A DNA stretch of 40,415 bases from NCBI GenBank assembly GCA_035329685.1, contig DAOLGI010000001.1:33824-74238 (forward strand), in the 5' to 3' direction. Position numbers and translations under genes: made by a program. This DNA comes from Acidimicrobiia bacterium. GTDB lineage: Bacteria > Actinomycetota > Acidimicrobiia > IMCC26256 > JAGPDB01. The notes under the pieces were generated by a model that had not been told where the DNA came from, searched no databases, and was given only the letters and a program-made list of their open reading frames with translations. Below are positions 8,131 through 39,412 of this stretch, in pieces. Position 1 is the first letter of the stretch. Each line of letters begins with the position of its first letter.

Positions 8131-8226
8131 GTTAACGAACTGGTAGCTCCATGGGGAGGGTCCGGCCGTGGAAAGGTTGTGACCTTTGTAGGTCACTTTT
8201 CCTTACTTTCCAAGGCCAGACCCTAA
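8131..8226 (-). repeat. Rep-C unit with shortened tail, between rpsI and glmM
   Basis: The minus strand reads TTAGGGTCTGGCCTTGGAAAG..GTGACCTACAAAGGTCAC..CTTTCCACGGCCGGACCCTCCCC-ATGGAGCTAC-CAGTTCGTTAAC. Confidence 0.8.
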
Positions 8227-23281: not shown

Positions 23282-23297
23282 TCCGCTGTTCTTGCAG

Positions 23298-23424
23298 TTA
23301 GGGTTGTCCCTTGGAAAAACGGAGAAATACAGAGAATCTCACATGAGATTTCTCATACGTTTTCCAAGGGGCGGCCCTCCCCTTAAAACAACTAAACAGC
23401 AGCAGTTCGTTCAGTTGTACCGAG
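23298..23424 (+). repeat. Rep-C full unit after guaA
   Basis: TTAGGGTTGTCCCTTGGAAAAACG..apex..CGTTTTCCAAGGGGCGGCCCTCCCC-TTAAAACAACTAAAC-AGCAGCAGTTCGTTCAGTTGTACCGAG. Confidence 0.9.
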
Positions 23425-23506
23425 TCTTATAGCCTAAACCTGCGTGGACATCCCATCTCCAACTACACTGCAATGCATATATTCACACAGTGAAAGAGGT
23501 TGTCCC

Positions 23507-24094
23507 ATGACACGAAACCGATTATTTGTTACCTGTGCCTGCGCACTTGTTCTTGTTCTCTCTTTGGGCGCATGTGGTTCAGATTCTAAGAAGGAATCTT
23601 CTGACAGTAAGTCCGAGGAACGCAAGTCAGTGAGCTCTTCGAGTGGTAAGAGTGATTTTGTGAAAGATGTTGCAAAAGTATGTCAAGGAATTGATCGAGA
23701 AGTCTTCGACGAATTGTCTAATTCAGATATTGCTGGCGATCCTGACGCATTCCAAGAAGCATTGAAGAACGGTGAAGATGAGCTCGATAATGTGATTTCT
23801 GATCTTGAAGATATCGATCCTCCATCAAAGTTTTCCGATGACTGGGATACATTCCTCGATGATTTTTCTGCAATGAGGGACGCGTATCCACAACTTGGTG
23901 AAGGGATGGCATCACTCACTCGACTCGCTACAGATTCTCAATCGACAGACCCAGCAACTGCGCAGGCTGCACAAACGCAAATGATTGAAGTTCAAGCTGA
24001 TTTGCAAGAATTAGTTGAAGACTTATCTCAACGTGGAGAAGAAATAGCAGCTATTGCAGATCGCCTTGGCTTAGAAGATTGTAATTTAGATTAG
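23507..24094 (+). CDS. Acidic lipoprotein of unknown function
   Basis: ATG 23507 follows an AAAGAGG Shine-Dalgarno sequence. The signal peptide MTRNRLFVTCACALVLVLSLGAC carries a lipobox (LGAC), followed by a Ser/Asp/Glu-rich mature part. Confidence 0.65.
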   Translation: MTRNRLFVTCACALVLVLSLGACGSDSKKESSDSKSEERKSVSSSSGKSDFVKDVAKVCQGIDREVFDELSNSDIAGDPDAFQEALKNGEDELDNVISDLEDIDPPSKFSDDWDTFLDDFSAMRDAYPQLGEGMASLTRLATDSQSTDPATAQAAQTQMIEVQADLQELVEDLSQRGEEIAAIADRLGLEDCNLD

Positions 24095-24255
24095 TTCCAT
24101 CTGAGCGTCACTTGGAAACAAACCAGGTTTGCACCCAGATGGCGCTGTTCTAGCTACATAACGGCCTGAAACCCTTGTATAAAGAGCTGCATTGGCGGGT
24201 GTTGCCTCCTGGGATCTATACTTTTACACTAAATGTGTAAAGGTTCCGTTCTGCG

Positions 24256-24519
24256 ATGATTAAATTTCCTACTTCGAATAGTTGGTGGATTTTTGATGAT
24301 ACACATTTACGCTTTAGAAAAATTCCTCGTGATATGAATCCTGATGCATTCGTACTTGATGGCGATTGGCAGAAATATGCAGATCTTGAGATTGACGCAG
24401 ATAATTCCGCATTCACAGTATTTTTAGATGAAGAAAAGACTCGTCTTTTGCGAGGCTATATCGAGTCCGCTGATTCTGAACAGGACCTGGACAAGGATAT
24501 TGTCGCATCTGACGCCTAA
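24256..24519 (+). CDS. Small hypothetical protein (87 aa)
   Basis: Clean ORF 9 nt upstream of pcrA. It is Trp-rich at the N-terminus (SNSWWIFDDTHLRFRK) with an acidic tail. I recognise no motif. Confidence 0.45.
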   Translation: MIKFPTSNSWWIFDDTHLRFRKIPRDMNPDAFVLDGDWQKYADLEIDADNSAFTVFLDEEKTRLLRGYIESADSEQDLDKDIVASDA

Positions 24520-24528
24520 ATTATTGGC

Positions 24529-27081
24529 GTGACTTTTCCCGCAAACGTTTTCGCAGCAACAGTACTGCCCGATATTGACGACACCTCAGATAAGCGCAAC
24601 CCGCTCGACCACATTCTCGATTCCCTGAACGATTCTCAACGCGAAGCCGTGACGTACGGTAATGGGCCCCTTCTTGTAGTTGCCGGTGCCGGTTCGGGAA
24701 AAACGAGAGTGCTGACTCGACGCATTGCCTATTTGATTGCGCAGGGCGGTGTTTCACCATACGAGATTCTTGCTATTACCTTTACGAATAAAGCTGCTGC
24801 GGAAATGGTGGAGCGCGTAGCACAGGTTGTAGGTCCGATTGCCTCCCGAATGTGGGTTTCTACCTTTCACTCAGCGTGCGCGCGAATTCTCCGAATGGAT
24901 GGAGAAGCCGTCGGGATTAAAAGTGGGTTCTCTATTTATGATGTGTCAGATTCCACGCGTCTTGTTGACTATGCCCGGCGCGATATTGGGGCTGACTCCA
25001 AGCGTTTCACAGCCAAAACTTTGCAGCGGACGATTTCTTCCATGAAAAATGAACTGATAACACCAGCTCAGGCTTTAGAACGTGCCGAGATGGATACTCA
25101 AGTCACCATTGCTAAAGTCTATGCAGAATACGAGCAACGTCTTCGTGCGGCGAATGCCGCCGATTTCGATGATCTACTTGTGAAGTGTGTGGAATTACTC
25201 CGCGATCACGATCACGCACGAGATAAATATCAAAATCGATTTTCGCATGTTCTCGTCGATGAATTTCAAGATACCAACATGGCACAGTCTGAACTTGTGA
25301 ATCTCTTATCTCAGAAAAACCGCAATGTCACAGTTGTCGGTGATGCTGATCAGTCCATCTATAAATTTCGTGGTGCAGATCATCTCAATATGGAACGATT
25401 TGAGGAAAGCTACCCCGATACTCACGTAGTGATTCTGAATACGAATTATCGTTCGACGGAGAACATTTTGGCTGCGGCAAATGCTGTTATATCGAACAAT
25501 TCTTCACGACATAAAAAAGAATTGATCTCCGACAAAGGTGAAGGTGAACCGATCACGGTTTACTATGCAAATAGTGATCGCAACGAAGCCCAACATGTGG
25601 CAGATACCATCGGAAAATTGATGATGACACAATCGCTCGACACAATTGCTGTTTTTTATCGCACGAATGCGCAATCACGACTGATCGAAGAGCGTCTCAT
25701 TCGTCTTGGCATTTCATACCGTATTATCGGCGGGACGAAGTTTTTTGAACGGCGTGAAATCAAAGATGCGATTGCCTACTTGCGTGTCTTTGCTAACTCT
25801 TCCGACGAAGCTTCGTGGCGTCGCATAATTAATGAACCCAAACGGGGTATCGGTGATACTTCAATTTCCAAAATTGCGGCCTTTGCGCGAATGCACGACA
25901 TCTCCTTCCGGCAGGCCTTAGAGCGGGTCTACGAAATAGGCTTGTCAAAGAAGGCTTCTCAAGCCGCATTAGGTCTCTGTTCATTGTTTGACGTCGCAGC
26001 CAATGGGGAGCGAATCAATGTTGCTGACATTGTGGACCATCTTCTCCATGCATCGGGCTATATCAAGATGCTTGAAGAAGAAAACTCGTTTGAATCCCAA
26101 GGCCGGTTGGAGAACCTCATTGAACTTGTTTCTCAAGCGCGAGAGTTTGATGTTGCTATTGATGTGAAGTGGAAAGATCAAAGAGAAAATGTTGCACAAG
26201 TATTTGATGGGCAGGCAGATTCCGTTGCACGTGTTTTTGCCGAAGAAGACGAACGCTTGCTTGATCCTGAATCACCGCATGATCGCGTCGGAGCATTTCT
26301 TGAAGCGGTTTCTCTGTTGGCAGAGTCAGATCAAGCCAATGCGAATGATGAAGCAGTGACCTTGATGACTCTTCATACGGCCAAAGGACTTGAATATTCC
26401 ACTGTGTTCATTGTGGGGCTCGAAGAAGGATTGTTTCCTCATGAACGCTCTATGGGCGATGTGTCTGAGCTCGAAGAAGAACGACGACTTTGCTATGTCG
26501 GTATTACCCGAGCAAAAGATCGACTGTTTTTAAGCTGTGCCCTGTCACGAATGACCTATGCCACCCCCGATTACTTTTCACCCAGCCGATTTTTGAAAGA
26601 AATACCAGCGGAACTAGTAAAGGCAATCCAGGATAAAGATTCCCCCAGCGAATTCATGAGTTCTCGTCAGCCTTCGGGCGCGACCTCGTCGTCGCGTTCT
26701 CGATATTCGCAGGTATATGACGATGTGATCTTTGATGATATTGATCCCGATGATGAACTGGGTGCCGGACGAATAATTGGGGGAAGTTCGGGTTTTGCGA
26801 CATCAGCACGTGTACGATCTCGTATTTGGGGTGATGTGAAAGATGAGGATGAGGACTCTGAAGCGCTGAGCTCAGTTGATGAAGTAAATGAATTAGAAAG
26901 TTCATTTGATGTCACGCCTTTTGTGTTGGGTGTTCATGTTCATCATGATAAATATGGCCAGGGGACTGTCACTAACGTAGAAGTCCATCGAAATGGCGAT
27001 ACTGCGATTACGGTGAGTTTTCCGAGTGATAAGACCAGAACATTCATGGCTTCACTCGATCCTCCGTTGACGCTTATCTGA
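24529..27081 (+). CDS. pcrA: ATP-dependent DNA helicase PcrA/UvrD (SF1A)
   Basis: 850 aa containing AGAGSGKT, VDEFQDTN, VGDADQSIYKFRGA, TLHTAKGLE and CYVGITRAK, followed by an acidic linker and a C-terminal Tudor-like domain (HHDKYGQGTV). Confidence 0.9.
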   Translation: MTFPANVFAATVLPDIDDTSDKRNPLDHILDSLNDSQREAVTYGNGPLLVVAGAGSGKTRVLTRRIAYLIAQGGVSPYEILAITFTNKAAAEMVERVAQVVGPIASRMWVSTFHSACARILRMDGEAVGIKSGFSIYDVSDSTRLVDYARRDIGADSKRFTAKTLQRTISSMKNELITPAQALERAEMDTQVTIAKVYAEYEQRLRAANAADFDDLLVKCVELLRDHDHARDKYQNRFSHVLVDEFQDTNMAQSELVNLLSQKNRNVTVVGDADQSIYKFRGADHLNMERFEESYPDTHVVILNTNYRSTENILAAANAVISNNSSRHKKELISDKGEGEPITVYYANSDRNEAQHVADTIGKLMMTQSLDTIAVFYRTNAQSRLIEERLIRLGISYRIIGGTKFFERREIKDAIAYLRVFANSSDEASWRRIINEPKRGIGDTSISKIAAFARMHDISFRQALERVYEIGLSKKASQAALGLCSLFDVAANGERINVADIVDHLLHASGYIKMLEEENSFESQGRLENLIELVSQAREFDVAIDVKWKDQRENVAQVFDGQADSVARVFAEEDERLLDPESPHDRVGAFLEAVSLLAESDQANANDEAVTLMTLHTAKGLEYSTVFIVGLEEGLFPHERSMGDVSELEEERRLCYVGITRAKDRLFLSCALSRMTYATPDYFSPSRFLKEIPAELVKAIQDKDSPSEFMSSRQPSGATSSSRSRYSQVYDDVIFDDIDPDDELGAGRIIGGSSGFATSARVRSRIWGDVKDEDEDSEALSSVDEVNELESSFDVTPFVLGVHVHHDKYGQGTVTNVEVHRNGDTAITVSFPSDKTRTFMASLDPPLTLI

Positions 27082-27098
27082 TTCTGATTTCTTCAACT

Positions 27099-27153
27099 GT
27101 CATCCTGAGAGCACATACGTCATCCTGAGTGCAGCAAAGGATCTTTAGCTGCA
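27099..27153 (+). repeat. Rep-A copy with duplicated GTCATCCTGAG head
   Basis: GTCATCCTGAGAGCACATACGTCATCCTGAGTGCAGCAAAGGATCTTTAGCTGCA, which includes a TGCAGC/GCTGCA stem. Confidence 0.85.
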
Positions 27154-27220
27154 ACACTGGGTGAAAACTTTTCATCTGATCGATTTGAATGAGCAACACT
27201 GGCCTATTAGAATGTCTCGA

Positions 27221-28309
27221 ATGACCGTTTTAGGAAGAGATCACCCAGAAGATGTAAGAACATGGATGGAACTTCAACATGGTCAATGGGTAACGCCAAC
27301 CGAAATTCAGCGAGCTATTCTCAATCACTGGGGAATCACTGATGTCGTTATCGGTGAGAGAATGGCAACAGGTGAAGCAACTGAAGTGTACCGCGTGCAC
27401 AAAAGGCCTACCGAAGGCCAGGATGACGGACTTTTAGGCTATCTCAGGATTGCTAATCATGGTGGTCTGAACGATGCGGAAATTATATTAATGGAGGCAT
27501 GCCGTGCTGCAGGCTTGCCCAGTGTGGAATTATTACATTCTTCTCCATATCAATTACGCAACGGTCAAATATCGTCTGATCTGGGCGCAACTTTCCTTGC
27601 TCCAGCGGTAGGTCTAAACCTTGCTGAGGCTATTGAGCAAGGTACCTACGACATTGAAGTAATAAATACGGCGTTGCGTAATGCGGGCGCGTTGCTAGCT
27701 CACATTCATAGTTTACCTGATGTTAATGTCGGTGTTGCTCAAGCGGTCGAGCGGGGTTTGGCGAGAAGTCAGAGAGATGATTTTAGTCGTGACTTAGCTT
27801 TTCTTCGAAGGACGATGCAGTACATTCCAGAAGCAACTCCTCTTTTACAACACATTAAACAAGCAGCACGTGATCATAAAGCAGGACTTGCGGATATACA
27901 GAGCAAATATCCACGCGCATTGGTGCATGCCGACTTTGATCCGAAGCATCTTTTCTTTGATCCATTGACTGGCGATATTACATCTCTTATCGATTTTGGC
28001 GGTGCACACGTAAATGTTGCGCATGCCGATTTCTTTCATTGGAAAACATTTTCTCCTATGACGTACGAGGTTTTTCTTGATGCTTATCTCGATGAGAGAT
28101 TTGGCTTTGACTTAATTGATGCGCAAGAATTCGAAGCTGAAATTGACTTGGCATATGCGGCTTGTAATTTAAGGTCAGCATGTGTACGGATGGATCAGCT
28201 GCTTGTAAATGAAGCAGTAGGCCATTTACATAATTGTGCAAGCGCTTGTGATCGTATTGCGCCCAGGGTAAAGGTACCCACAGCATCTGAAGGTGCCCTG
28301 TCCTATTAA
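27221..28309 (+). CDS. APH/choline-kinase-family phosphotransferase-like protein, paralog 1
   Basis: Contains a Gly-rich ATGEATEVYRV, the catalytic-loop-like HADFDPKH and IDFGGAH. I chose the start at the ATG shared with paralog 2; the ORF remains open upstream to GTG 27161. Confidence 0.6.
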   Translation: MTVLGRDHPEDVRTWMELQHGQWVTPTEIQRAILNHWGITDVVIGERMATGEATEVYRVHKRPTEGQDDGLLGYLRIANHGGLNDAEIILMEACRAAGLPSVELLHSSPYQLRNGQISSDLGATFLAPAVGLNLAEAIEQGTYDIEVINTALRNAGALLAHIHSLPDVNVGVAQAVERGLARSQRDDFSRDLAFLRRTMQYIPEATPLLQHIKQAARDHKAGLADIQSKYPRALVHADFDPKHLFFDPLTGDITSLIDFGGAHVNVAHADFFHWKTFSPMTYEVFLDAYLDERFGFDLIDAQEFEAEIDLAYAACNLRSACVRMDQLLVNEAVGHLHNCASACDRIAPRVKVPTASEGALSY

Positions 28310-28370
28310 TATGATTCAAGTTACCATTACTTTTTGACTAAAAAGGCCAGATGTCGATAGAATGTCTTGA

Positions 28371-29447
28371 ATGACCGTTTTAGGAAGAGACCATGAAGAT
28401 GATATTGCTCTTTTTTTCAGAAGCCAACATCGTATATGGACAACTCAAAAAGGTGCACGTAAGAAGATTCTCGCAAGTTGGGGGATAAAAAACTTTTCTA
28501 TAGGGAAACGAATTGCTACCGGTGAAGCGAGCGAGGTTTACCCTGTTAACGATAAATCAACTAAAAAATTGTTGGGTTATTTACGAATTGCTCATCGGGG
28601 AGCAGGGAGTCGTAACGGATGCGAAGTCACTCTTATGAAGGCTTGCGACGAGGCAGGTTTGCCCAGTGTGCGATTATTGCATTCTGCGGATTTGTCACGG
28701 GCAAATGGTAAATCCCCTATTGAAGGAGCAATAACCTTTGTAGCCCCTGCACGTGGAATGAATCTTCAAGAGGCCATTTTGATGCCGGGTATAGCTCAAG
28801 GGCTCATTCGAAATGCAGTTCATAATTCAGGCATTTTTCTCGCAGAGATGCATTTGCTCAGAGACCGCGATCCTGCAGTGGAAAAAATGGTAAGTAAATT
28901 TTCATATGCAGAAGCCTCAACTCAACTGGGTAAATTTTTTAATAAAGCAAGAAAAACGTTACGGCGTTTAGATGAGACTAAAGAACAATTCGCAGCTATC
29001 GACGACGCTTTCCTCCAGGTATGGGAAGGGCTTGCACGTCTTTATCAAGAATATCCTCTTGTTTTAATACATTCCGATCTTGAACCGAAACATGTTTTCT
29101 TTAATATCAATCGGGGTGAGCTTCTAAATGTGATTGATTTTGGTAGCGCGCATGTCAATATTCCACACTTCGATTTGCTCAACTGGAAAACTTTTTCGCC
29201 GGAAACATTCGACGAATTTGCCCAATCATATCTCGATGCCCGATTTGGAAGTGACTACGAGAGAGCATCGCACTTCATGGAGGAACTTGATTTTGCGGAG
29301 ACTGTGTGGCAATTAGATTGGGCGCTCTATCGCATGGAGCACCTCCTCGTTGCTGAAGCATGCGGGCATGTGCAATTGGCGGGCGAAGCATGTCGCCGCA
29401 TTATTGCAAGAGATTTACAACCACATCGAGATTTGGGACATCCGTAA
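28371..29447 (+). CDS. APH/choline-kinase-family phosphotransferase-like protein, paralog 2
   Basis: 358 aa, collinear with paralog 1 (ATGEASEVYPV, LLGYLRIA, HSDLEPKH, IDFGSAH). Confidence 0.6.
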   Translation: MTVLGRDHEDDIALFFRSQHRIWTTQKGARKKILASWGIKNFSIGKRIATGEASEVYPVNDKSTKKLLGYLRIAHRGAGSRNGCEVTLMKACDEAGLPSVRLLHSADLSRANGKSPIEGAITFVAPARGMNLQEAILMPGIAQGLIRNAVHNSGIFLAEMHLLRDRDPAVEKMVSKFSYAEASTQLGKFFNKARKTLRRLDETKEQFAAIDDAFLQVWEGLARLYQEYPLVLIHSDLEPKHVFFNINRGELLNVIDFGSAHVNIPHFDLLNWKTFSPETFDEFAQSYLDARFGSDYERASHFMEELDFAETVWQLDWALYRMEHLLVAEACGHVQLAGEACRRIIARDLQPHRDLGHP

Positions 29448-29543
29448 AGAGTATTTCTGTACTGATTTTCGATTCTTTCTTCCCGCTCGAGTAGCGTAAG
29501 GACTCGCATTTCCTAATAAATATCGTTTCGTACGAGGAGCACA

Positions 29544-30698
29544 ATGGATCTTTTGGAATATCAAGGTAAGGAGCTTTTTGCTACCTTTGACATCCCCGTT
29601 AGCGCTGGTAAAGCGGTCACGGATGTTGATAGTGCAGTAGTAGCGGCTAGCGAAGTGGGATATCCCGTTGTCGTTAAGGCCCAGGTACTTGTTGGTGGCC
29701 GCGGAAAAGCGGGCGGTGTCAAACTTGCTACCAATGAAGACGAATGCCGCGAACACGCCACAAACATTTTGGGTCTCGATATCAAAGGCCATATTGTCAA
29801 AACAATCTGGATCGAACATGCGAGCGATATCGAAAAAGAATATTACGCAAGTTTCACACTTGATCGTGCAGCAAAAAAGCATCTCGGTATGCTCTCGGCA
29901 GAGGGTGGAGTCGAAATAGAGATAATCGCAGAAGAGAATCCTGATGCAATTGCAAAGATTTGGATCGACCCTTTCATTGGATTAACCAGAGAGCAATGCA
30001 CAGTATGGGTCAACGATGCCAACCTAGATGAAGAAGCACGAGCTGGCTCCGTCGACATCTTGATGAATCTTTACAGGGCATACGTTGAAGGCGATACTGA
30101 CCTGGCTGAAATCAATCCATTGATTCTGACACCAGAAGGTAAGGTTCATGCACTGGATGCCAAAGTGACGCTTGATGAAAATGCTGAGTTCCGTCATCCT
30201 GAATGGGCAGCTTATGAAGGAACGCAAGAACTCGATTCGCGCGAACTCATGGCAAAGGAAAAAGGTCTTAATTACATTGGTCTCGATGGAGAAATCGGAA
30301 TCATTGGCAACGGTGCGGGTCTCGTGATGTCGACTCTCGATATTGTCAACCAAGTGGGCGGTCGTCCAGCGAACTTTTTGGATGTGGGTGGTGGCGCCGG
30401 TGCTGACCTTCTCGCGAATGCAATTGAAGTCGTCAACAGTGATGAAAAAGTAAAAGCAATTTTCTTGAACATCTTTGGTGGAATTACAAAATGTGATGAT
30501 GTTGCCAACGGGGTTGTTGAAGCTACATCACGCGTGAATCTCACTTCTCCCATTGTTGTTCGTTTAGATGGAACAAACGTAGAAGAAGGTCGCGCAATCT
30601 TGGCTGCAAATCCCAATCCAATGGTGGTATCAGCTCCGACCATGCTCGACGCTGCGCGCAAAGCTGTTGAATTATCGGTTAAGGCCGAGGAAGGTTAG
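29544..30698 (+). CDS. sucC: Succinyl-CoA synthetase beta subunit
   Basis: 384 aa starting MDLLEYQGKELF, with an ATP-grasp domain, and containing GNGAGLVMSTLD and NIFGGITKCD. Confidence 0.95.
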   Translation: MDLLEYQGKELFATFDIPVSAGKAVTDVDSAVVAASEVGYPVVVKAQVLVGGRGKAGGVKLATNEDECREHATNILGLDIKGHIVKTIWIEHASDIEKEYYASFTLDRAAKKHLGMLSAEGGVEIEIIAEENPDAIAKIWIDPFIGLTREQCTVWVNDANLDEEARAGSVDILMNLYRAYVEGDTDLAEINPLILTPEGKVHALDAKVTLDENAEFRHPEWAAYEGTQELDSRELMAKEKGLNYIGLDGEIGIIGNGAGLVMSTLDIVNQVGGRPANFLDVGGGAGADLLANAIEVVNSDEKVKAIFLNIFGGITKCDDVANGVVEATSRVNLTSPIVVRLDGTNVEEGRAILAANPNPMVVSAPTMLDAARKAVELSVKAEEG

Positions 30699-30700
30699 CG

Positions 30701-31591
30701 ATGAGTATTTTTGTTGATAAAGACACAAAAGTTATTTACCAAGGACTCACCGGTTCGCAAGGGCACTTCCATGGAATGCGTAATAAGGAATACGGAACGC
30801 AGGTTGTTGCAGGAACAAACCCTAAAAAAGCAGGTACGGATGTTGAAGGTGTTCCTGTATATGGAACAGTTGCCGAAGCGAAAGCAGCAACAGGCGCTAC
30901 CGCGAGCTGTATTTTTATCCCTGCTCCTGGAGTTAAAGGGGCGGTGCTCGAAGCAGCAGAAGCAGGAATTGAATTCATTGTCGTTATCACGGAAGGTGTT
31001 CCGAGTCACGACGAAGCCCAGTTTTACAACCAAGTAAAAACAGAACATCCGAACACGTTTATTCTTGGTCCTAACTGTCCTGGAATCATTACGCCGGGTG
31101 AATGTAACATAGGAATTATTCCTGGACAGATTGCACTCGCGGGTGGACCCGTCGGTGTTGTTTCTCGTTCCGGAACTCTGACCTACCAAGCCGTTCATGA
31201 ACTCTCACAACGAGGTATTGGTCAAACCACGTGTGTGGGTATTGGGGGGGACCCTGTTCCCGGCGTGACACACATTGATTGTTTGGAGCGATTTGAAGCT
31301 GACCCAGATACCAAGGCTGTTATCTTGATTGGTGAAATTGGTGGTTCTGCTGAAGAAGATGCAGCGCAATTCATTGCCAACAAAATGACGAAACCTGTTG
31401 TTGCTTACATTGCGGGTGTTACAGCACCTGCGGGAAAGAAAATGGGCCATGCCGGCGCAATCATTTCTGGAGGTAAGGGTACAGCACAAGGCAAGATGGA
31501 TGCGCTTACGGCTGCTGGAGCAACCGTAGTGATGAACCCAACGGAAATTGGTGCTGCAATGGCAGACGTGATCGCAGGCTTTACACCATAG
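30701..31591 (+). CDS. sucD: Succinyl-CoA synthetase alpha subunit
   Basis: 296 aa containing [17 protein letters not shown] and the phosphohistidine motif MGHAGAI. The stop TAG forms the first bases of a Rep-C copy. Confidence 0.95.
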
Positions 31592-31688
31592 GGTTGGACC
31601 TTGGAAACGAGATTTTGTGCGACGAGCTGTAGTCCAAGGTCCGGCCCTCCCGGGAAGCACCGAAAGTAGCAGCAGTTCGTTCAGTCAT
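31589..31688 (+). repeat. Rep-C full unit starting at the sucD stop codon
   Basis: TAGGGTTGGACCTTGGA..apex..TCCAAGGTCCGGCCCTCCCG-GGAAGCACCGAAAGT-AGCAGCAGTTCGTTCAGTCAT, with a 15-bp stem 31591-31605 / 31633-31647. Confidence 0.9.
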
Positions 31689-31740
31689 CGCCGATATTTT
31701 GGTGGCGATTGTCTAAAGTTGTACTTCATATTGTCGAAAG

Positions 31741-32121
31741 ATGCCTATGAACGATACGCCTGACATTTCAGATGCCCAGGAGCAAGAAGACGGAGCCACG
31801 CCACCTCCTAGGGCAATGCCCATAGACCCTGAGGTCGGAGCGTATTATTCCAATCTCCAAAACACTGGAGTTTCTGCCCAAAAAACTGATGGGTTTGCTA
31901 TTACTTCGCTTGTCTTCGGACTTATTCCGTGTGGACTTATTTCCGGGCTATGTGCAGTCATTTTTGGGGTAAAGGCTCAGCGACGAATAAAAAAAAGCAA
32001 CGGAGCTACCAAAGGAGAGGGTTTAGCTCGTGCCGGGATCATACTTGGTTCGATACAACTTGTTGCCATCTTTATCTTCCTTATTGTTGATATGATCGAT
32101 TTACTGAACACTGGATTGTGA
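31741..32121 (+). CDS. DUF4190-like small membrane protein
   Basis: 126 aa with an acidic/Pro N-terminus and two TM segments flanking a basic loop (KAQRRIKKSNGATKG). It is a paralog of the next gene and shares the G(A/T)YYSN motif. Confidence 0.6.
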   Translation: MPMNDTPDISDAQEQEDGATPPPRAMPIDPEVGAYYSNLQNTGVSAQKTDGFAITSLVFGLIPCGLISGLCAVIFGVKAQRRIKKSNGATKGEGLARAGIILGSIQLVAIFIFLIVDMIDLLNTGL

Positions 32122-32124
32122 GAT

Positions 32125-32625
32125 ATGACAGACGACAACGAAACTCCGAACGAAAGTAACGAACTGCCTTCGGCTGAATCGTCCGATGCACCTCATATTC
32201 CGCCGCCGAGCCCGTATGCTCAGCCGACTCAACCGCCTCCACCTCCTCCGCCTGTGGAAGTATCGCCGCCACCTCCACCGCCGCCGCCCATGGAACCAGT
32301 TGCCCCCCAGATGGGAACGTATTATTCCAATCAACAGGGCTATGTGGTTTCTGGCCCCAAGAACGATCCTTTTGCAGTTACCTCGATGGTCGTGGGAATC
32401 GTGGGTGTGCCGCTGTCTTGTTGTTGCACGCCTTTATCTTTCGTTTTGGGGATCATTGCAACAGTTTTTGGTGCACTATCCATGTCGAAAATTAAGAAGA
32501 TGCAAGGTCAACTGGGCGGACAAGGAATGGCAGTTGCAGGACTGGTTTTGGGAATTTGTGTAATTGGGCTATCGATTGCCTCCTTTGCATTCGGTGTTGT
32601 CAACTACACCGCAGACCTGGGCTAG
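32125..32625 (+). CDS. DUF4190-like membrane protein with poly-proline N-terminus
   Basis: 166 aa with PPPPPPPVEVSPPPPPPPP, then the same two-TM module (SMSKIKKMQGQLGGQG loop). Confidence 0.6.
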   Translation: MTDDNETPNESNELPSAESSDAPHIPPPSPYAQPTQPPPPPPPVEVSPPPPPPPPMEPVAPQMGTYYSNQQGYVVSGPKNDPFAVTSMVVGIVGVPLSCCCTPLSFVLGIIATVFGALSMSKIKKMQGQLGGQGMAVAGLVLGICVIGLSIASFAFGVVNYTADLG

Positions 32626-32685
32626 CGTCACATTTACTTCTGCATTATTTCGCATTTTCACTGCGAAATGTGAGAGCATGAATAC

Positions 32686-33291
32686 TTGAATTCACCTCAT
32701 GCGTCCGGCTCTGCAGTAAATATCGCAGTACTCGTTTCCGGCTCGGGAACGAATCTTCAAGCCATCATCGATGATGGAATTACTGTTGCCCTTGTGCTGT
32801 GCGATCGTCCTGACATTCCTTCAATTGATCGGGCGAACAAAGCGGGAATTGAATTCTGTGTTGTGGATCGATCACTCTACAAGGGTAGACGCGAAGAGTT
32901 TACCCAAGCTGTTGTTGGTGAACTTGAAGCTCGCAATATTGACCTTGTGGTGATGGCGGGTTTCATGACAATTTTGACCCCTATTCTTTTTGAAAAATTT
33001 GAGGGATGCGTACTTAATATTCATCCGAGTTTGTTGCCTGCGTTTACGGGTACACATGGTCGAGGGACAATGACTGCTACTTTGGAATCTGGTGTCAAGG
33101 TAACGGGTGTTACTGTTCATATTGCTACCGCAGATGTGGACGCAGGGCCTATTCTCGCGCAGGAGTCTGTCGAAGTATTAGAAAATGATGATGAAGATTC
33201 ACTGCACGAGCGAATACAAAAAGTTGAGCATCGAATATATCCTCAAACAATTCGCCAATTTTGCGCCCAACATTTTAATAATCAAGAATAA
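32686..33291 (+). CDS. purN: Phosphoribosylglycinamide formyltransferase
   Basis: Contains VLVSGSGTNLQAII, NIHPSLLPAF and TVH..T..VDAGPI. The TTG start is the only in-frame option. Confidence 0.9.
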   Translation: MNSPHASGSAVNIAVLVSGSGTNLQAIIDDGITVALVLCDRPDIPSIDRANKAGIEFCVVDRSLYKGRREEFTQAVVGELEARNIDLVVMAGFMTILTPILFEKFEGCVLNIHPSLLPAFTGTHGRGTMTATLESGVKVTGVTVHIATADVDAGPILAQESVEVLENDDEDSLHERIQKVEHRIYPQTIRQFCAQHFNNQE

Positions 33292-33305
33292 CGAAAGGCC
33301 CCGTA

Positions 33306-34829
33306 ATGACCTTCCCTGTAAAGCGAGCACTTATATCCTGTTTTGATAAAACAGGAGTTGTCGATTTTGCGCAAAGTCTGCATAGCTTGGGTATCGATAT
33401 CGTTTCCTCTGGAGGAACGGCAGTTGTAATCGCCGAAGCGGGCATTCCTGTAACCACCGTCGAAGACGTCACGGGCATGCCAGAAATGTTGGATCATCGC
33501 GTTGTGACTTTGCATCCAAAAATTCACGGCGGAATTCTGGCCGATCTCGATAAAGAAAACCATCACAAAGACATGGAAAAGTTTGGCATTGAAGCTTTCG
33601 GGCTCGTTGTTGTGAACCTGTATCCCTTTGTTGAAAAACCAGGAATAGAAACCATCGATATTGGTGGCCCAGCAATGATTCGTGCAGCGGCAAAAAATAA
33701 TGCCTTTGTCGGTGTGGTAACGAATCCTCGCCAGTATGCTGACGTCCTCGATGATCTCAAGAACAACAATAACGAATTAAGCGACGCACTTCGTTGGCGT
33801 TTAGCGCGTGAAGCATACGTGCTCACTGCTTCGTTTGATGCGGCCATTGTTGAATGGATGAATAACCAAGATTCCGGCAAGTCTGGCGAATTGCCAGAAG
33901 AGATCATTATCTCACTGAAGAAGCGTACCGATCTTCGCTATGGAGAAAATCCTCATCAGCAAGCTGCGCTTTATGATTATGTCAATCACGAGACATCATG
34001 GCCGCAGTCCATGGTGGTTCATCAGGGTAAAGAGCTCAGTTACATTAACTATCTTGATCTGCAATCTTCGTGGTCATTGGTGAACCAATTTGATGGTCCT
34101 TCCTGTGTGATCGTCAAGCACGCGAATCCTTGTGGGGTAGCGAGTGCTGGCAATATATTTGATGCTTACGGTCGAGCATTTGCATGTGATGATGTCTCTG
34201 CCTTTGGTGGAGTAGTGGCGATTAATGGTGAGATTGATGAAGCAACAGCGAACGCTGTTACCGATGCGTTTACTGAAGTCGTTATTGCTTCCAGTATCTC
34301 TGATGCTGCAATGGAACTTTTTTCTCAGAAGAAAAACCTCCGTGTTATTACCGCTGACAAGCCCAATAAATTGGGATGGGATATTAAACACATCGATGGA
34401 GCATTTCTTGCACAAGACGCCGATGACTTTACTGATAATGAATCCGCATGGAAAGTAGTCACCACACGCGAACCTACTGATGCGGAAATGGCTGAAGCAA
34501 AGTTTGCTTGGACTGTGTGCGCAGGAACATCCAGCAATGCAATTGTATTGACAAATAATTGTCAAGCAGTGGGGATTGGCGCAGGTCAGCAAAGTCGTGT
34601 TCATGCAGCTGAAATTGCAGCGAACAAGGCGGGGGATCGAGCCCAGGGCGGTGCATGTGCATCCGATGCTTTCTTTCCTTTTCGCGACGGAATTGATGCA
34701 GCAGTCGCTACCGGTGTGACTGTCGTGATTCAGCCCGGAGGATCTATGCGCGACGACGAAGTCATCGAAGCGGCTAACGAACACGGCATTGCCATGATCT
34801 TTACCGGGACCCGCCACTTCCGACATTAG
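33306..34829 (+). CDS. purH: Bifunctional AICAR transformylase / IMP cyclohydrolase
   Basis: 507 aa containing [32 protein letters not shown] and C-terminus FTGTRHFRH. Confidence 0.95.
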
Positions 34830-34837
34830 ACCTGAAT

Positions 34838-34938
34838 TTAGGGTTGTTCCTGGTGCCAGGAGCGTAGCGACTGAGCAGCAGGTGCGACCCTCCCCATAAG
34901 CAACGCATCTACAGCAGTTCGTTCAGTTGTATCGCGAC
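34838..34938 (+). repeat. Rep-C full unit after purH
   Basis: TTAGGGTTGTTCCTG..apex..CAGGTGCGACCCTCCCC-ATAAGCAACGCATCT-ACAGCAGTTCGTTCAGTTGTATCGCGAC. Confidence 0.9.
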
Positions 34939-34940
34939 TC

Positions 34941-35007
34941 GTGGTCCGCAGGTACGGCCCTCCCCTAAATCAACTGTGTTGCAGCAGAACGTTCAGTTGT
35001 TTCGAGG
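34941..35007 (+). repeat. Rep-C half unit in tandem with the preceding full unit
   Basis: GTGGTCCGCAGGTACGGCCCTCCCC-TAAATCAACTGTGTT-GCAGCAGAACGTTCAGTTGTTTCGAGG. Confidence 0.8.
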
Positions 35008-35017
35008 TTTTCCATTT

Positions 35018-35072
35018 GTCATCCTGAGTGCAAAGAAGGATCGAGATTCCTCGGCCAACGCCTCGGAATGAC
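35018..35072 (+). repeat. Rep-A complete two-armed copy (55 nt)
   Basis: GTCATCCTGAG-TGCAAA-GAAGGATC-GA-GATTCCTC-GGCCAACGC-CTCGGAATGAC. Confidence 0.9.
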
Positions 35073-35098
35073 ATGCCGTTACGAATTAGCATAGAGAT

Positions 35099-35947
35099 AT
35101 GGCAAAAATCCTCAGCGGCACCGAATTTCTCGAAGCAGAAAAAGCACGTCTTCGCGATCGAATTATGCGGCTAAATCGGGCTCCGGGATTAGGAACAATT
35201 CTTGTGGGTGCCGACCCTAACTCTCAAAGTTATATTCGTCATAAGCATCAGGCCTGTGCTGATGTGGGAATTGTTTCTCATCATGTGGAGTTAGCAGAAT
35301 CATCTACGCAGCAAGAAGTCATTGCAGCGATTGAAGCCATGAATAACGACGAGGATGTCGATGCATTCATTGTGCAGTTGCCTCTTCCCCAGCAATGCAA
35401 TGAAGAACAAGCGCTGCTCGCGATTGATCCTGTTAAAGATGCTGATGGATTACACCCCGTGAATTTAGGAAAATTAGTGATGGGAGTTGATGCTCCTCGC
35501 CCGTGTACTCCTTTGGGTATTCAAGCTTTGTTGAAAGACAACGGAATTGACCTTACTGGTAAGCATGTTGTGATTGTTGGCCGCGGACTCACGATTGGTC
35601 GTCCGCTAGCCAATCTTTTAACTCTCAAAGAAGCTGGTGCGAATGCAACGGTGACCGTTGTTCATACGGGCACGCCAGATATTGCTCAGTACACCCGCGA
35701 TGCAGATGTAGTGATCGCAGCAGTGGGTGTTCCCGATGTCATTACACCCGATATGGTCAAAGATGGAGTCGTGCTTGTATCGGCGGGAATGACATTTGGT
35801 GAAGGTCGCCGGCTCATTCCTGACATCTCCGAAGGGTGTGCAGACAAGGCGTCTTTCATTACTCCGCGTATTGGGGGAGTGGGTCCCACGACAATCGCAA
35901 TGCTTTTGCGCAACACCGTGACTGCAGCAGAAAAAGCCAACCGTTAA
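35099..35947 (+). CDS. folD: Methylenetetrahydrofolate dehydrogenase / methenyl-THF cyclohydrolase
   Basis: 282 aa containing YIRHKHQAC, VQLPLP, GRGLTIGRP and GGVGPTTIAML. Confidence 0.95.
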   Translation: MAKILSGTEFLEAEKARLRDRIMRLNRAPGLGTILVGADPNSQSYIRHKHQACADVGIVSHHVELAESSTQQEVIAAIEAMNNDEDVDAFIVQLPLPQQCNEEQALLAIDPVKDADGLHPVNLGKLVMGVDAPRPCTPLGIQALLKDNGIDLTGKHVVIVGRGLTIGRPLANLLTLKEAGANATVTVVHTGTPDIAQYTRDADVVIAAVGVPDVITPDMVKDGVVLVSAGMTFGEGRRLIPDISEGCADKASFITPRIGGVGPTTIAMLLRNTVTAAEKANR

Positions 35948-36062
35948 AGATTAGTGGCTTCCTTGACCGGGGCAATTGTATGTTCACGTTAGATTGCTTT
36001 GCTATCCATTCCACATGATTTATACCAGCGACTATGTGATGTGCCTCGGGTAGGCTTTTTCA

Positions 36063-36899
36063 GTGGCCGTTTTAAATGATACAGAAATCGAAGCTTTTAT
36101 CAGTGATGGATTTGTTTGCGTTCGTGAAGCGATTCCGGCCGGCATAGTTTCTGAGTGCCAAAATGAAATCTGGCAATTGATTACTGAGAGCAATCCGTCA
36201 ATCGTTCGCGACGATCCCGAGACGTGGACGGAACCCTTTATTCGTATCTATGGTTCTGATGCTCCATGTATGCGCGCAGCTGCGAATACAGAACGACTTA
36301 CGGCAACTTTTGATCAACTTGTGGGAGTCGGAAATTGGAAACCGCGAACTGGTATCGGAACCTTCCCCATTCGTTTCCCTGAACGACCTGACATGAACTC
36401 CCAAGAAGCGCGGGCAGACGGGTATCACATTGATGGAAGCTGGCTTGTTCCCGAAAAAGATCGTCACGACATTGAACTCCAGAAATACCCATACGGAGTG
36501 AATCTATCTTCTGATGGCCGTGCATTATTGATTCTTTTTTTGTTCTCCGACATGGAAACTCAGGCCGATGCGCCTCCTATCATCAAGAGAGGTTCGCATT
36601 TAGACATCGCGCGTGAGCTAGCTGACTATGAACATGAAGTTGTTAGTGGCGTCCGTATGGTTGAACGTCTCGATTTGGCTCGTTATGAAACAGTTCATGC
36701 GACAGGAAAAGCAGGGGATGTATATTTGCTCCATCCTTTTACAGTGCATAGGGGGCAGCTCTGCGTGGGAGATCACCCTCGCATTCTCGCCCAACCTGAA
36801 CTTCCTCCAGCACATACTCCGGCATATAACCTTCATCGAACCGATGAGAAATATGCGCCAGCAGAACAAGCAGTGCTGCAAGGGGTACAGGAAGATTGA
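36063..36899 (+). CDS. Phytanoyl-CoA dioxygenase (PhyH) family Fe(II)/2OG oxygenase
   Basis: GTG start, 278 aa. The N-terminus FISDGFVCV is PhyH-like, with the HxD motif YHIDGSW and a distal His in LLHPFTVHRG. Confidence 0.6.
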   Translation: MAVLNDTEIEAFISDGFVCVREAIPAGIVSECQNEIWQLITESNPSIVRDDPETWTEPFIRIYGSDAPCMRAAANTERLTATFDQLVGVGNWKPRTGIGTFPIRFPERPDMNSQEARADGYHIDGSWLVPEKDRHDIELQKYPYGVNLSSDGRALLILFLFSDMETQADAPPIIKRGSHLDIARELADYEHEVVSGVRMVERLDLARYETVHATGKAGDVYLLHPFTVHRGQLCVGDHPRILAQPELPPAHTPAYNLHRTDEKYAPAEQAVLQGVQED

Positions 36900-37035
36900 G
36901 ATAGTCCATATAGGGGGCGACATCGCCACTGTCAAAATATACGCCCTAATCAAGGAGCGTACATATGTACTCAATTTCACTCGCTGTGTCTAGTAAGGTT
37001 CAAGATTCGATACTCGGGGCGCGAAGTATGCAAGG

Positions 37036-37293
37036 ATGTCATCCGTGACTGAAGCGTTCAACAACTTTTCTGACTTTGATCCGATTCAAACGCCAGCCAT
37101 TCAATGTTCTCTCTGCCTTCACGAAATTACGTACACCCAAGAAGAGAGTTCCTCTCATTACGTGCAGTGTCCCCGTTGCGATTATCACCAGCCATTAGCA
37201 AAAACACCTCGCGGTCGAGACATCGCAATTTTTGGTGGCGCGGTAGCAGTTGTTTATCTGACTACTATTGTTGCATTACTAATCGCACGATAA
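37036..37293 (+). CDS. Small zinc-ribbon protein with C-terminal TM anchor
   Basis: 85 aa with CSLC-x19-CPRC, then the hydrophobic tail IAIFGGAVAVVYLTTIVALLIA. Confidence 0.45.
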   Translation: MSSVTEAFNNFSDFDPIQTPAIQCSLCLHEITYTQEESSSHYVQCPRCDYHQPLAKTPRGRDIAIFGGAVAVVYLTTIVALLIAR

Positions 37294-37325
37294 TTTTTTC
37301 ATCCGCACCCATTAAGGATAGATAA

Positions 37326-38534
37326 ATGGCTACGGCTCTCACGCTTAACGATGACCTCACTCTGAATGTTCCTGTCGACCCCATCATTCCTTATATCGAA
37401 GGCGATGGAATTGGAATAGATATCTGGCCAGCAGCTCAAGCGGTCTTTGATGCTGCGATTGAAAAATGTTTTGGTGGAACTCACAGCGTTGCTTGGTTGA
37501 AAGTACTTGCAGGTGAAGCTGCTTTTAATGAAACAGGGGAATGGCTTCCCCAGGACACGGTTGATGCTTTTGAAAAGTATCTTGTGGGAATCAAAGGACC
37601 ATTGACCACTCCTGTTGGTGGCGGTATTCGGAGTCTCAATGTGGCACTCCGTCAGATACTTGATCTCTACGTATGTTTGCGTCCTGTGAAATACTTCCAA
37701 GGAGTTCCTTCACCTGTGAAGAATCCCTCTGCTGTTGACATGGTGATCTTTCGAGAAAATACGGAAGATGTCTATGCTGGTTTCGAAGTAGAAGTCAATA
37801 CTCCAGAGTCGAAGAAATTGCTCGAGTTTTTGTTGGACACTTATGGTTGGAAAATCCGTGCCGATTCTGGAATAGGAATCAAACCTGTCAGCATCACCGG
37901 TTCGAAACGACTTATTCGCGCTGCGATGAAATATGCAGTCGAACGCAATCGTCGAAGCGTGACTTTGGTACATAAGGGAAACATCCAAAAATTTACGGAA
38001 GGCGCTTTTCGCAACTGGGGTTACGACGTTGCGCGCGAGGAATTCCCAGATGTACTTGTCAGCTGGGATGATTGCGGTGGTGAACCGGGAAACAAAATTC
38101 TTGTTCAAGACGTCATTGCAGATAATGCTTTCCAGCAAACGTTGTTGCGTCCTGAAGAATACGATGTTCTTGCCACTTGCAATTTGAATGGCGATTATCT
38201 ATCAGATGCTTTGGCTGCCCAAGTCGGTGGGATTGGAATTGCCCCTGGTGGAAACATTAATTACGTCACAGGTCACGGGATTTTCGAAGCCACTCACGGA
38301 ACTGCTCCAAAATATGCAGGGCAAAATAAAGTCAATCCTGGCTCGGTCATTTTGTCAGGTGTATTGATGTTTGAACATCTTGGCTGGTTTGATGTTGCTG
38401 CAATGATTACGAGTTCCCTTGAGCAAGCAATTGCAGACAGAATTGTTACCTATGACTTTGCGCGCGCAATGGATGGAGCAAGCGAAGTGGGCACAATGGA
38501 GTTCGCACAAGCCATGATCGACCGCATGACTTGA
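37326..38534 (+). CDS. icd: NADP-dependent isocitrate dehydrogenase (homodimeric type)
   Basis: 402 aa containing [45 protein letters not shown] and [13 protein letters not shown]. Confidence 0.95.
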
Positions 38535-38603
38535 GTTTATTGTCGAACCGCGGGCATAGCCCGACGGTTCTCGCGGTCGCTCCTCCGGTCGCTCCCTGTG
38601 ATT
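38535..38603 (+). repeat. Rep-B copy directly after the icd stop
   Basis: GTTTATTGTCGAACCGCGGGCATAGCCCGACGGTTCTCGCGGTCGCTCCTCCGGTCGCTCCCTGTGATT. Confidence 0.9.
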
Positions 38604-38724
38604 CGGTCTGACCTTGGAAAAACGGAGAAAACAGAGAATCTCACAAGAGATTTCTTCTACGTTTTCCAAGGTCAGACCCTCCCCAAACTAACGATGTAGC
38701 AGCAGTTCGTTCAGTTGTATCGAG
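38604..38724 (+). repeat. Rep-C full unit fused to a Rep-B copy after icd
   Basis: CGGTCTGACCTTGGAAAAACG..apex..CGTTTTCCAAGGTCAGACCCTCCCC-AAACTAACGATGT-AGCAGCAGTTCGTTCAGTTGTATCGAG. The apex is about 90% identical to 23322-23357. Confidence 0.9.
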
Positions 38725-38741
38725 CGGTGTGGCCCAAGGCG

Positions 38742-38799
38742 CGGACATCTAGAGATTCTTCGTTTCACTCAGAATGACGGGAGCCGGATGAGGATGACA
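38742..38799 (-). repeat. Rep-A-like copy overlapping the 3' end of the ABC ATPase gene (boundaries approximate)
   Basis: The minus strand reads GTCATCCTCATCCGGCTCCCGTCATTCTGAGTGAAACGAAGAATCTCTAGATGTCCGCGC. Its CTGAGTGAAACGAAG core is identical to 1705-1719. Confidence 0.7.
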
Positions 38800-39412
38800 A
38801 CTCGAGGATCCGATCGGCGATAGTTTCTGCTTCTTGGGCGTCATGGGTTACAAGAATTGCTGTCGTGTTTGTTTTCTTCAACAGGGTCGTTAATTCCCCA
38901 GCAAGTTGGTCATGGAGTTCGCGATCTAAACCGGTGAGTGGTTCATCGAGCAATAAAACGGAAGGCGAAGGAGCGAGTGATCGAGCAAGTGCCACGCGTT
39001 TGGCTTCACCTCCACTGAGATCGGCAATACTACGATCCTCGAAGCCGCTCAACCCTACAAGATCGAGCATTTCATGGATCTTGTCTTTACGAATTTTCTT
39101 CTCGAGACCCTGCATTCGTAATCCAAATTCGATATTGCGTGCAACATTCATGTGGGGGAAGAGTTGATTGTCTTGAAAAACCATTCCTATATTACGGAGA
39201 TGCGCAGCTTTATGGGTCACATCAAGTCCATCAATAGAAATGCTTCCTGAGTCAGGAATGAGCAGACGCGCAATAACTTTCAGCAGAGTTGTTTTACCCA
39301 CACCCGATGGGCCTAGAAGCGCAACAACTTCATGTTGCGCAACAGACAGGCTGATGTCATCCAGAACGATTCGTTCGTCGAAAGCGACGTTGATCTTTTC
39401 TACCTTAAGCAT
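38765..39412 (-). CDS. ABC transporter ATP-binding protein (short, thiamine/Fe3+-importer-like)
   Basis: Walker A GPSGVGKTT, signature LSGGEAKR and Walker B LLLDEP. ATG 39412 overlaps the permease stop (ATGCTTAA). The last ~11 codons lie in a Rep-A-like repeat. Confidence 0.85.
   Translation of the reverse strand: MLKVEKINVAFDERIVLDDISLSVAQHEVVALLGPSGVGKTTLLKVIARLLIPDSGSISIDGLDVTHKAAHLRNIGMVFQDNQLFPHMNVARNIEFGLRMQGLEKKIRKDKIHEMLDLVGLSGFEDRSIADLSGGEAKRVALARSLAPSPSVLLLDEPLTGLDRELHDQLAGELTTLLKKTNTTAILVTHDAQEAETIADRILELSSSSGSRHSE

Follow-up and report, generated by a model that had tools for sequence, protein, structure and literature searches.

The repeats closest to the element described here are the REPINs and the bacterial interspersed mosaic elements (BIMEs), both built from repetitive extragenic palindromes (REPs). 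They are known together with their enzymes, the REP-associated tyrosine transposases (RAYTs), from Pseudomonas fluorescens SBW25 and Escherichia coli (PMC3116915, PMC3333891, PMC8266576, PMC6006769). REPINs are extragenic hairpin doublets with compensatory changes (PMC3116915). TnpAREP binds the folded single-stranded REP in a strand-specific manner, and the inverse REP is not processed (PMC8266576). Irregularities in the stem belong to what TnpAREP enzymes recognise (PMC8266576, PMC3479197). The element in question, Rep-C, is a hairpin repeat present in a 40,415-nucleotide stretch of contig DAOLGI010000001.1 (the window). The window belongs to a 1.67-Mb metagenome-assembled genome in 126 contigs that is 93% complete (G000). 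Its host is treated here as an uncultured actinobacterium with a small genome from activated sludge. The pairing of the Rep-C stem is preserved on one strand, and the hairpin is possibly folded as single-stranded DNA for a RAYT-type enzyme.

Rep-C resembles the REPIN-RAYT systems in a number of ways. It is extragenic, with about 70 copies in 1.7 Mb. It consists of a short palindrome doubled in inverted orientation, and the resulting long hairpin has an imperfect stem and compensatory changes. Several subfamilies and tandem clusters are present in one genome. The genome has a single Y1 HUH gene, which carries the HUH and Y---NP motifs and is bracketed by palindromes. In addition, the biochemistry of TnpAREP would lead one to expect a single-stranded substrate that is recognised in a strand-specific manner. 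There are also differences. Rep-C does not have a conserved 5' GTAG tag, and where E. coli REP has an A·A/G·C bulge, the irregular positions of the Rep-C stem are G·T wobbles. Its hairpin is followed by a CCCC tract and an invariant 20-nt tail (GCAGCAGTTCGTTCAGTTGT), and its tandem units repeat the 3' arm and tail only, in one orientation. Finally, the host is an uncultured actinobacterium, the RAYT-like protein scores below the NCBIfam cut-off, and the palindromes flanking its gene form a sister family.

Two other kinds of element share features with Rep-C. The ends of IS200/IS605 elements and of their non-autonomous derivatives, the palindrome-associated transposable elements (PATEs), which TnpA(IS200) mobilises as single-stranded DNA, have imperfect subterminal hairpins that are recognised on one strand and in which irregular stem positions matter. 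As in IS200/IS605, no target-site duplication was seen at three empty Rep-C sites. Unlike these elements, Rep-C has no second hairpin on its left or right, no lagging-strand orientation bias and no conserved tetranucleotide target that could be identified, and no class-1 (Y---Q) transposase or TnpB was found in G000, where the TnpB zinc-ribbon domain gave no match. A PATE derived from IS200/IS605 was rejected because there is no TnpB, the sole Y1 gene is of the Y---NP type and each unit has one hairpin. The Correia, ERIC and RUP miniature inverted-repeat transposable elements and the CGTC/GTAG-tagged palindromes (PMC3733652) are also small intergenic hairpin repeats that sometimes abut or supply stop codons. 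However, those have terminal inverted repeats and target duplications, or tags, whereas Rep-C is an asymmetric hairpin plus tail with no such tag.

Layout of Rep-C and pairing on one strand

In its own sense, a Rep-C unit begins with (A)GTT or TT. The 5' arm then runs from AGGGT through a 6-mer of variable sequence to CTTGG(AAA), and after 3 to ~100 nt of apical sequence the 3' arm runs from (TTT)CCAAG through the matching 6-mer to CCCT. Next come CCCC and a linker of ~14 nt, and the unit ends with the tail and ~20 less conserved nucleotides. In many cases the 3' half (3' arm, CCCC and tail) occurs two to three times in tandem, with a period of 70 nt and without a 5' arm. About 70 tails and 67 clean hairpins were found in G000. 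The following copies are present in the window:

31590-31648, plus strand, the Rep-C hairpin of the finding: 59 nt, 5' arm AGGGTTGGACCTTGGA, 3' arm TCCAAGGTCCGGCCCT, 16 bp with two T·G
31649-31690, plus strand, C-tract CCC, linker and tail core GCAGCAGTTCGTTCAGT (31669-31685) of the same copy
23300-23378, plus strand, Rep-C hairpin: 19-bp basal stem AGGGTTGTCCCTTGGAAAA / TTTTCCAAGGGGCGGCCCT with three T·G
23379-23430, plus strand, C-tract CCCC, linker, invariant tail core GCAGCAGTTCGTTCAGTTGT (23399-23418) and post-tail
34840-34891, plus strand, Rep-C hairpin of a short-loop subfamily: AGGGTTGTTCCTGGTGC / GCAGCAGGTGCGACCCT with two T·G, one T·T and one other mismatch
34892-35004, plus strand, C-tract and tail (core 34911-30), then a tandem half unit
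38605-38680, plus strand, Rep-C hairpin with its 5' foot truncated by an adjoining Rep-B: GGTCTGACCTTGGAAAA / TTTTCCAAGGTCAGACC, 17 bp
38681-38730, plus strand, C-tract, linker, tail core (38699-38718) and post-tail
5295-5379, minus strand, Rep-C: hairpin 5349-5379 with two T·G and one T·T in its own sense, complement of the tail core at 5310-5329
8110-8224, minus strand, Rep-C: hairpin 8157-8224 with one T·G and one mismatch, degenerate tail 8110-8156
243-477, minus strand, Rep-C: foot 359-368 pairs with 468-477 with two T·G, and a Rep-A is nested in the loop

The sequence-only reading had described paired stems with U-G wobbles in six of these copies (at 23301, 31591, 34841, 5350, 8160 and 355). 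Their pairing and their wobble counts were confirmed, and the additional mismatches in the copies at 34840, 5349 and 8157 had been left out. In the 31590 copy, the DNA fold of the top strand has -15.1 kcal/mol versus -11.9 for the bottom strand, and its tail is truncated or diverged 3' of AGT. The 38605 stem is entirely Watson-Crick, with T-A at positions where other copies have T·G. The 23300 copy has an orthologue in G003, a sister species whose flanks are ~90% identical to those of G000. It reads GGCAACCCT, and two of the three wobbles are T-A there. The tandem half unit at 34948-35004 is made of 3' arm, CCCC and tail, with a period of 70 nt and no 5' arm. Another such unit lies at ~243-307 in the 243-477 copy, whose tail complement is at ~300-358. 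At the site matching 8110-8224, the G003 copy differs by two double compensatory changes; this pair was not kept in the stricter orthologue set used below.

The same pattern is found throughout both genomes. Among the 67 hairpins of G000, 1064 stem cells are Watson-Crick, 148 have U on the 5' arm opposite G on the 3' arm, 9 have G opposite U, 5 are A·C or C·A and 39 are other mismatches. The latter include 18 T·T, mostly recurrent at arm position 9 of one subfamily. The 70 hairpins of G003 gave 1055, 146, 15, 2 and 52 cells, respectively. The asymmetry between the strands is very large, with wobbles against A·C or C·A at 157 to 5 in G000 and 161 to 2 in G003. The "almost all" of the sequence-only reading was slightly generous, since true mismatches make up about one fifth of the cells that are not Watson-Crick. 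Read on the complementary strand, each wobble would turn into A·C, and the paired cells would fall from ~96.5% to ~84.5% by the G000 counts. Of the 67 copies, 65 had the lower folding energy on the element strand when RNA parameters were used, and 66 when DNA parameters were used. The gap between top and bottom strand was -8.4 kcal/mol and -4.0 kcal/mol, respectively.

The arms covary. In an alignment of 44 Rep-C copies with 15 stem pairs (A1), 97.1% of the cells pair, compared to 85.1% after shuffling, and none of 500 shuffles reached the observed value. Changes on both sides were seen at 9 of the 15 pairs, and when the partner was slid by one column the pairing was 53%. Thus pairing is kept while the arm sequences vary, as had been proposed.

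The bulk wobble counts stem from three to five columns of a pyrimidine-rich stretch in the 5' arm (11/81, 12/80, 13/79, 14/78 and 16/76). Column 11 is a fixed T opposite A or G, columns 80 and 76 are a fixed G opposite C or T, and columns 13/79 and 14/78 alternate between U·G and G-C. Because the counts come from a few amplified columns, independent changes were counted instead of copies. The test set consisted of 19 orthologous pairs, each made of a G003 copy and a G000 copy that share position and subtype, and the stems of these pairs differ at 25 of 680 nt. One-sided transitions between Watson-Crick and wobble occurred 13 times, and transitions between Watson-Crick and A·C or C·A did not occur (13 versus 0 against a neutral expectation of 1:1, p ~1e-4). 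In addition, three to four double changes kept the pairing. Among rare variants within subfamilies, a test that partly overlaps with the first, wobble states outnumber A·C states by 15 to 4 (p ~0.01).

Stems are also well conserved. The identity between orthologues is 96.3% in the stems, 89% in the apical parts, 87% in the 5' flanks (which are mostly coding), 74% in the post-tail and 67% in the 3' intergenic flanks. Since the events stand at 13 to 0 and the stems are more conserved than their flanks, the pairing on the element's own strand is preserved, beyond inheritance. It is very probable that strand-specific folding of Rep-C is under selection. The proposal that one particular strand is the folded one thus agrees with the cells (157 to 5), the events and the rare variants. 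The stricter claim that stems tolerate only U on the 5' arm opposite G on the 3' arm does not hold for recent changes. Recent wobbles with G on the 5' arm and with U on the 5' arm number 6 and 7 between orthologues and 7 and 8 among subfamily variants. Because the two are equally common, the imbalance of 148 to 9 is a matter of column location. It is a founder effect of old amplified columns and not a structural prohibition.

The other parts of the unit were explored as well. RNAalifold gave no consensus pairs for the tail, whose folding z-score is -0.17. A CAACT/AGTTG pairing that appears in single folds of the tail is without compensatory changes, and a full-text literature search with the tail 20-mer gave no match. 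The pentamer CAGTT is found just 5' of the foot in many copies and twice in the invariant tail (GCAGTTCGTTCAGTTGT), for example at 23295-23299, 23402-23406 and 23413-23417 of the window. This pentamer could be a candidate cleavage or target motif. The tract after the hairpin, CCCTCCCC (e.g., 23375-23382), is similar to the anti-Shine-Dalgarno sequence, and its complement, GGGGAGGG, is a strong Shine-Dalgarno look-alike. Because of this resemblance, Rep-C copies would put one or the other look-alike into neighbouring transcripts, depending on their orientation.

Position, orientation and turnover of the copies

The distribution of Rep-C between genes was determined with crude open reading frame (ORF) calls. 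It is proportional to spacer length. Observed and expected numbers were 39 and 36.5 for co-directional spacers, 18 and 17.3 for divergent spacers and 7 and 10.3 for convergent spacers (p=0.54). Between co-directional genes, 22 copies are sense and 17 are antisense. The copies C34 and C57, which are antisense to both neighbours, show wobble-preserving or compensatory changes. Since the orientation is random with respect to genes and the antisense copies have the same pattern, the pairing constraint cannot originate from a function within the mRNAs of the host. This agrees with the suggestion that an mRNA-embedded function alone is insufficient. A comparison of element orientation with replication direction had also been proposed. 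Against local GC skew in the 126-contig assembly, the split of 34 to 23 was not a significant bias.

Where the upstream gene is co-oriented, the 5' foot lies -2 to +19 nt from the stop codon in 18 of 24 cases. The 31590 hairpin is one example. Its foot is overlapped by the sucD stop codon TAG (31589-31591), which is made of the T before the foot and the first two bases, AG, of the foot itself. The G003 site (L046) is without the element, and the sucD orthologue there is three codons shorter (…GGCTTGTAG vs …GGCTTTACACCATAG).

Insertions were explored through the comparison of G003 with G000, because metagenome contigs from four DNA runs over window positions 22500-39500 were too short and confused by repeats. 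Three G003 copies (C36:~2063, C97:~645 and C13:~22105) face empty sites in G000. The inserts take in a few bases 5' of AGGG and ~20 nt past the tail core, and neither a target duplication nor a target motif was evident at these three sites. Among 29 sites common to both genomes, 10 carry a different subtype (long- versus short-loop, or different arm cores). Examples are 5349-5379 of the window versus L016, C5:8653 versus L005 and C21:12442 versus L007. The first of these is part of the 5295-5379 copy, which is antisense to its flanking plus-strand genes. These differences suggest repeated insertion or replacement at favoured sites.

Other repeats are associated with Rep-C. A complete Rep-A (a GTCATCCTGAG…GAAGGATCTC hairpin) lies inside the loop of 359-477, and the Rep-C foot still pairs across ~100 nt. 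Rep-B units (TCTCGCGGTCGCTCCTCC…TCGCTCCCTGTGA(C/T)T) adjoin Rep-C copies directly at 5145-5244 and 38563-38603 of the window, and at 38605 a Rep-B unit replaces the Rep-C 5' foot. Three Rep-C hairpins of G000 without a tail, C4:~15400 (minus strand), C33:14621-14700 (plus strand) and C11:~3250 (minus strand), are followed by a common conserved sequence of ~70 nt that ends in CTTATTTTCCTTGACTTTTTCAC-N-TTTGTTGATATAAT, a strong -35/-10-like promoter. This sequence may be the leader of a repeated (rRNA?) operon.

Rep-C is restricted to part of the compared genomes, with 72 copies in G000, 76 in G003, 18 in G001, 5 in G002 and none in G004-G006. The same subfamilies, wobbles included, persist across three or four species. 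Two public records of relatives (among L001-L017) are titled "uncultured Burkholderiales bacterium". The RNA polymerase subunit RpoA (3786-4721 of the window) scores ~309 bits against the enzymes of Mycobacterium and Streptomyces and 199 bits against that of E. coli. Since it is far closer to the former, the Burkholderiales label on those two records looks wrong, and the host is taken to be an actinobacterium.

The RAYT-like gene and its palindromes

A single Y1_Tnp gene, C6:17214-17858 (215 aa), was identified in G000 by the one PF01797 match in this 93%-complete genome. Its protein has a Pfam score of 35.9 bits (cut-off 23), an HUH motif, PNHFHLL, and a tyrosine motif, YIHLNP. Y---NP is the signature of class 2, the TnpAREP type (PMC6006769).

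The gene is bracketed by palindromes, TTTGCAGGGTCCAACCTTG…AAGGTTGGACCCTGCAAA, with the full form TTTGCAGGGTCCAACCTTG-TTGCG-AGGTTGGACCCTGCAAA. Both of its sides carry AGGGTCCAACC…GGTTGGACCCT, a sequence present at ~8 further loci. Homologues in three congeners are bracketed by AGGGT…ACCCT palindromes as well, CAGGGTGGAACCCTG in G003, AAGGGTCTTACCCTT in G001 and AGGGTCGGACCCT in G006, and AGGGTCGGACCCT is the core of the commonest Rep-C arm. The AGGGT/ACCCT foot is common to Rep-C and all of the RAYT-flanking palindromes. Between the flanking palindrome and the commonest Rep-C subfamily, 11 of 14 arm positions are alike. The kinship extends to the 31590 hairpin. The first 11 nt of its 5' arm are the RAYT-associated palindrome AGGGTTGGACC. 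Two A->G changes, exactly those that produce its two wobbles, set the 3' arm GGTCCGGCCCT apart from the inverse palindrome GGTCCAACCCT. Rep-C and the RAYT-flanking palindromes are best regarded as sister families and not as one family.

In L019 (G000:C6, 1434-1483 and 2152-2211), the palindrome 3' of the RAYT-like gene contains a tandem duplication of its 3' arm, GGTTGGACCCTG-TTGCAA-GGTTGGACCCTG, a parallel to the arm-only tandem units found in Rep-C. The palindrome on the upstream side is read through by the longest ORF of the gene.

The folded molecule and its possible role

An inverted doublet of the REP-like palindrome of the genus, as Rep-C appears to be, matches the definition of a REPIN (PMC3116915). 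The preferred explanation is that Rep-C is a REPIN-like element whose top strand is folded as single-stranded DNA for a RAYT-type enzyme. The probability of this whole chain is put at roughly 0.5. Two inverted copies of the palindrome of the genus, AGGGT-N3-5-ACCCT, would fold back into one long hairpin, with CCCC and a tail of fixed sequence behind it. Only the element's own ("top") strand would have to fold. C<->T changes opposite G and A<->G changes opposite T would persist, as a G·T or G·U wobble is kept on the top strand. The mirror-image transitions, which put A·C on the top strand, would be removed, and a one-sided wobble pattern would result. The folded molecule is most likely single-stranded DNA that would be exposed in replication or repair. 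The genome's single class-2 Y1 HUH (RAYT-like) enzyme, whose gene is bracketed by related palindromes, would read it in a strand-specific manner. Rep-C probably folds as DNA rather than RNA, and the RAYT-like protein may bind, cut or maintain it. The link to the RAYT palindromes favours DNA over RNA without proving DNA.

A number of points weigh against this explanation. G·U pairs better in RNA than G·T does in DNA, and tandem T·G steps such as AGGGTTG / CGGCCCT are costly in DNA. The lagging-strand bias of IS200/IS605 elements has no parallel in Rep-C, whose orientation is not biased relative to GC skew. The 5' GTAG of classical REPs is not conserved; the consensus 5' of the foot is AGTT or TT, and GTAG is present at -6 to -3 of the foot in a minority of copies only. 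The RAYT-like protein reaches 39.2 bits with the NCBIfam REP-transposase model NF047646 (cut-off 80), in a partial match over residues 75-152, and a search of PDB sequences gave no match, 4ER8 included. The palindromes that flank its gene form a separate low-copy family with other flanks (TTTGC…GCAAA), and they differ from Rep-C in flanks, tail and doublet arrangement. G005 and G006 have intact homologues of the protein (36-45% identity) and zero Rep-C, so the co-occurrence of Rep-C and the RAYT-like gene adds nothing beyond phylogeny. The invariant tail and the tandem half units are without counterpart in described REPINs. Finally, strong conservation at orthologous loci is unexpected for a purely selfish element; the host would have to benefit, or copies would have to be corrected continually.

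The alternative that survives best, although it appears unlikely, is an RNA fold. Rep-C would be transcribed as part of mRNAs or untranslated regions (UTRs), or from promoters outside the element. The stability, processing or translation of the transcript would be influenced by the hairpin together with the exposed CCCUCCCC and the tail, and copies in the wrong orientation would be silent passengers with an inherited pattern. The near-neutrality of G·U in RNA and the larger strand gap with RNA parameters (-8.4 versus -4.0 kcal/mol) are in its favour. The foot at -2 to +19 nt from the stop codon of co-oriented genes (18 of 24) is where a 3'-UTR hairpin would lie, and CCCUCCCC appears similar to the anti-Shine-Dalgarno sequence. 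Roles in mRNA are also documented for E. coli REPs (PMC3479197). However, the orientation is random between co-directional genes (22 to 17). About a quarter of the copies (17, with both neighbours opposite) would need antisense transcription, yet they have the same pattern; C34 and C57, the only two such copies with recorded changes between orthologues, have wobble-preserving or compensatory ones. Rep-C has neither a conserved promoter nor a U-run after the hairpin, and its tail lacks covariation and has a z-score near zero (-0.17). Nothing in the window matches a described Rfam RNA family at the gathering score, and such a family was therefore rejected. An intrinsic terminator was also rejected, as CCCC and not a U-run follows the hairpin and the orientation is random with respect to genes. 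Traces of the organism come from three metatranscriptome runs and one run of unknown type only. Their contigs over 3700-5700 of the window are scattered short pieces with the strand not indicated, too sparse to decide the RNA question.

An explanation without selection on folding is improbable. One-sided wobbles would have been present in a few founder copies and multiplied by copying. This does account for the bulk counts, which come from three to five columns fixed within subfamilies, and the exclusivity of U on the 5' arm opposite G on the 3' arm is truly a founder effect. It does not account for the independent recent changes, which avoid A·C both between orthologues (13 to 0) and within subfamilies (15 to 4), or for the double compensatory changes in orthologous copies. 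Orthologous stems are 96% identical compared to 67-74% in the nearby intergenic DNA, and the same subfamilies and wobbles persist in three or four species.

A duplex binding site for a dimeric protein, with the differences between arms as unequal half-sites, has very little probability. The arms are indeed conserved at the foot (AGGGT/ACCCT) and at CTTGG/CCAAG, and each arm is itself a small palindrome (GGTC-N-GACC). Differences between half-sites would have no reason to keep a wobble on one strand, as seen in 157 to 5 cells and 13 to 0 events. In addition, the spacing of the arms ranges from 3 to ~100 nt, with other repeats nested in the loop, which is incompatible with a fixed dimer footprint and leaves a hairpin unharmed.

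Strand-biased mutation (e.g., cytosine deamination of an exposed strand), which would give T opposite G without structural selection and fits the C/T polymorphisms of the 5' arm in columns 12/80 and 16/76, is hardly credible, because 3'-arm cytosines are not likewise affected, column 11/81 is an A/G polymorphism and not C/T, the same element-strand pattern is found in both orientations with respect to GC skew and genes, and deamination cannot yield double compensatory changes. An attC-like reading was also rejected, as no RYYYAAC partner exists for the GTTAGGG of the 5' side; the sequence on the 3' side is ACCCTCCCC.

The kind of system to which Rep-C appears to belong is known; the tail, the C-tract, the half units in one orientation, the missing GTAG and the host lineage are new. 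The most interesting loose end is the conservation of stems at the level of the locus, independent of gene orientation. It is possible, but doubtful, that Rep-C hairpins are kept at each locus, on one DNA strand and whatever the direction of transcription, as folded single-stranded DNA with a continuing role in the chromosome or through proof-reading or copy correction by the RAYT-like enzyme. If so, Rep-C would represent a maintained partnership and not selfish DNA in decay. A second module, read by its sequence, would then be formed by the invariant tail and the CCCTCCCC tract, for example as a cleavage or guide site of the enzyme.

Arguments on whether REP-type repeats matter as DNA or as RNA usually draw on the biochemistry of two or three model proteobacteria. 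In Rep-C, a clean signature based on events (13 to 0) emerges from the sequence record alone. Because it holds regardless of gene orientation, one strand must fold, under a constraint that is not tied to host transcription. Thus a defined protein and defined oligonucleotides make the question of DNA versus RNA open to direct testing in a new lineage.

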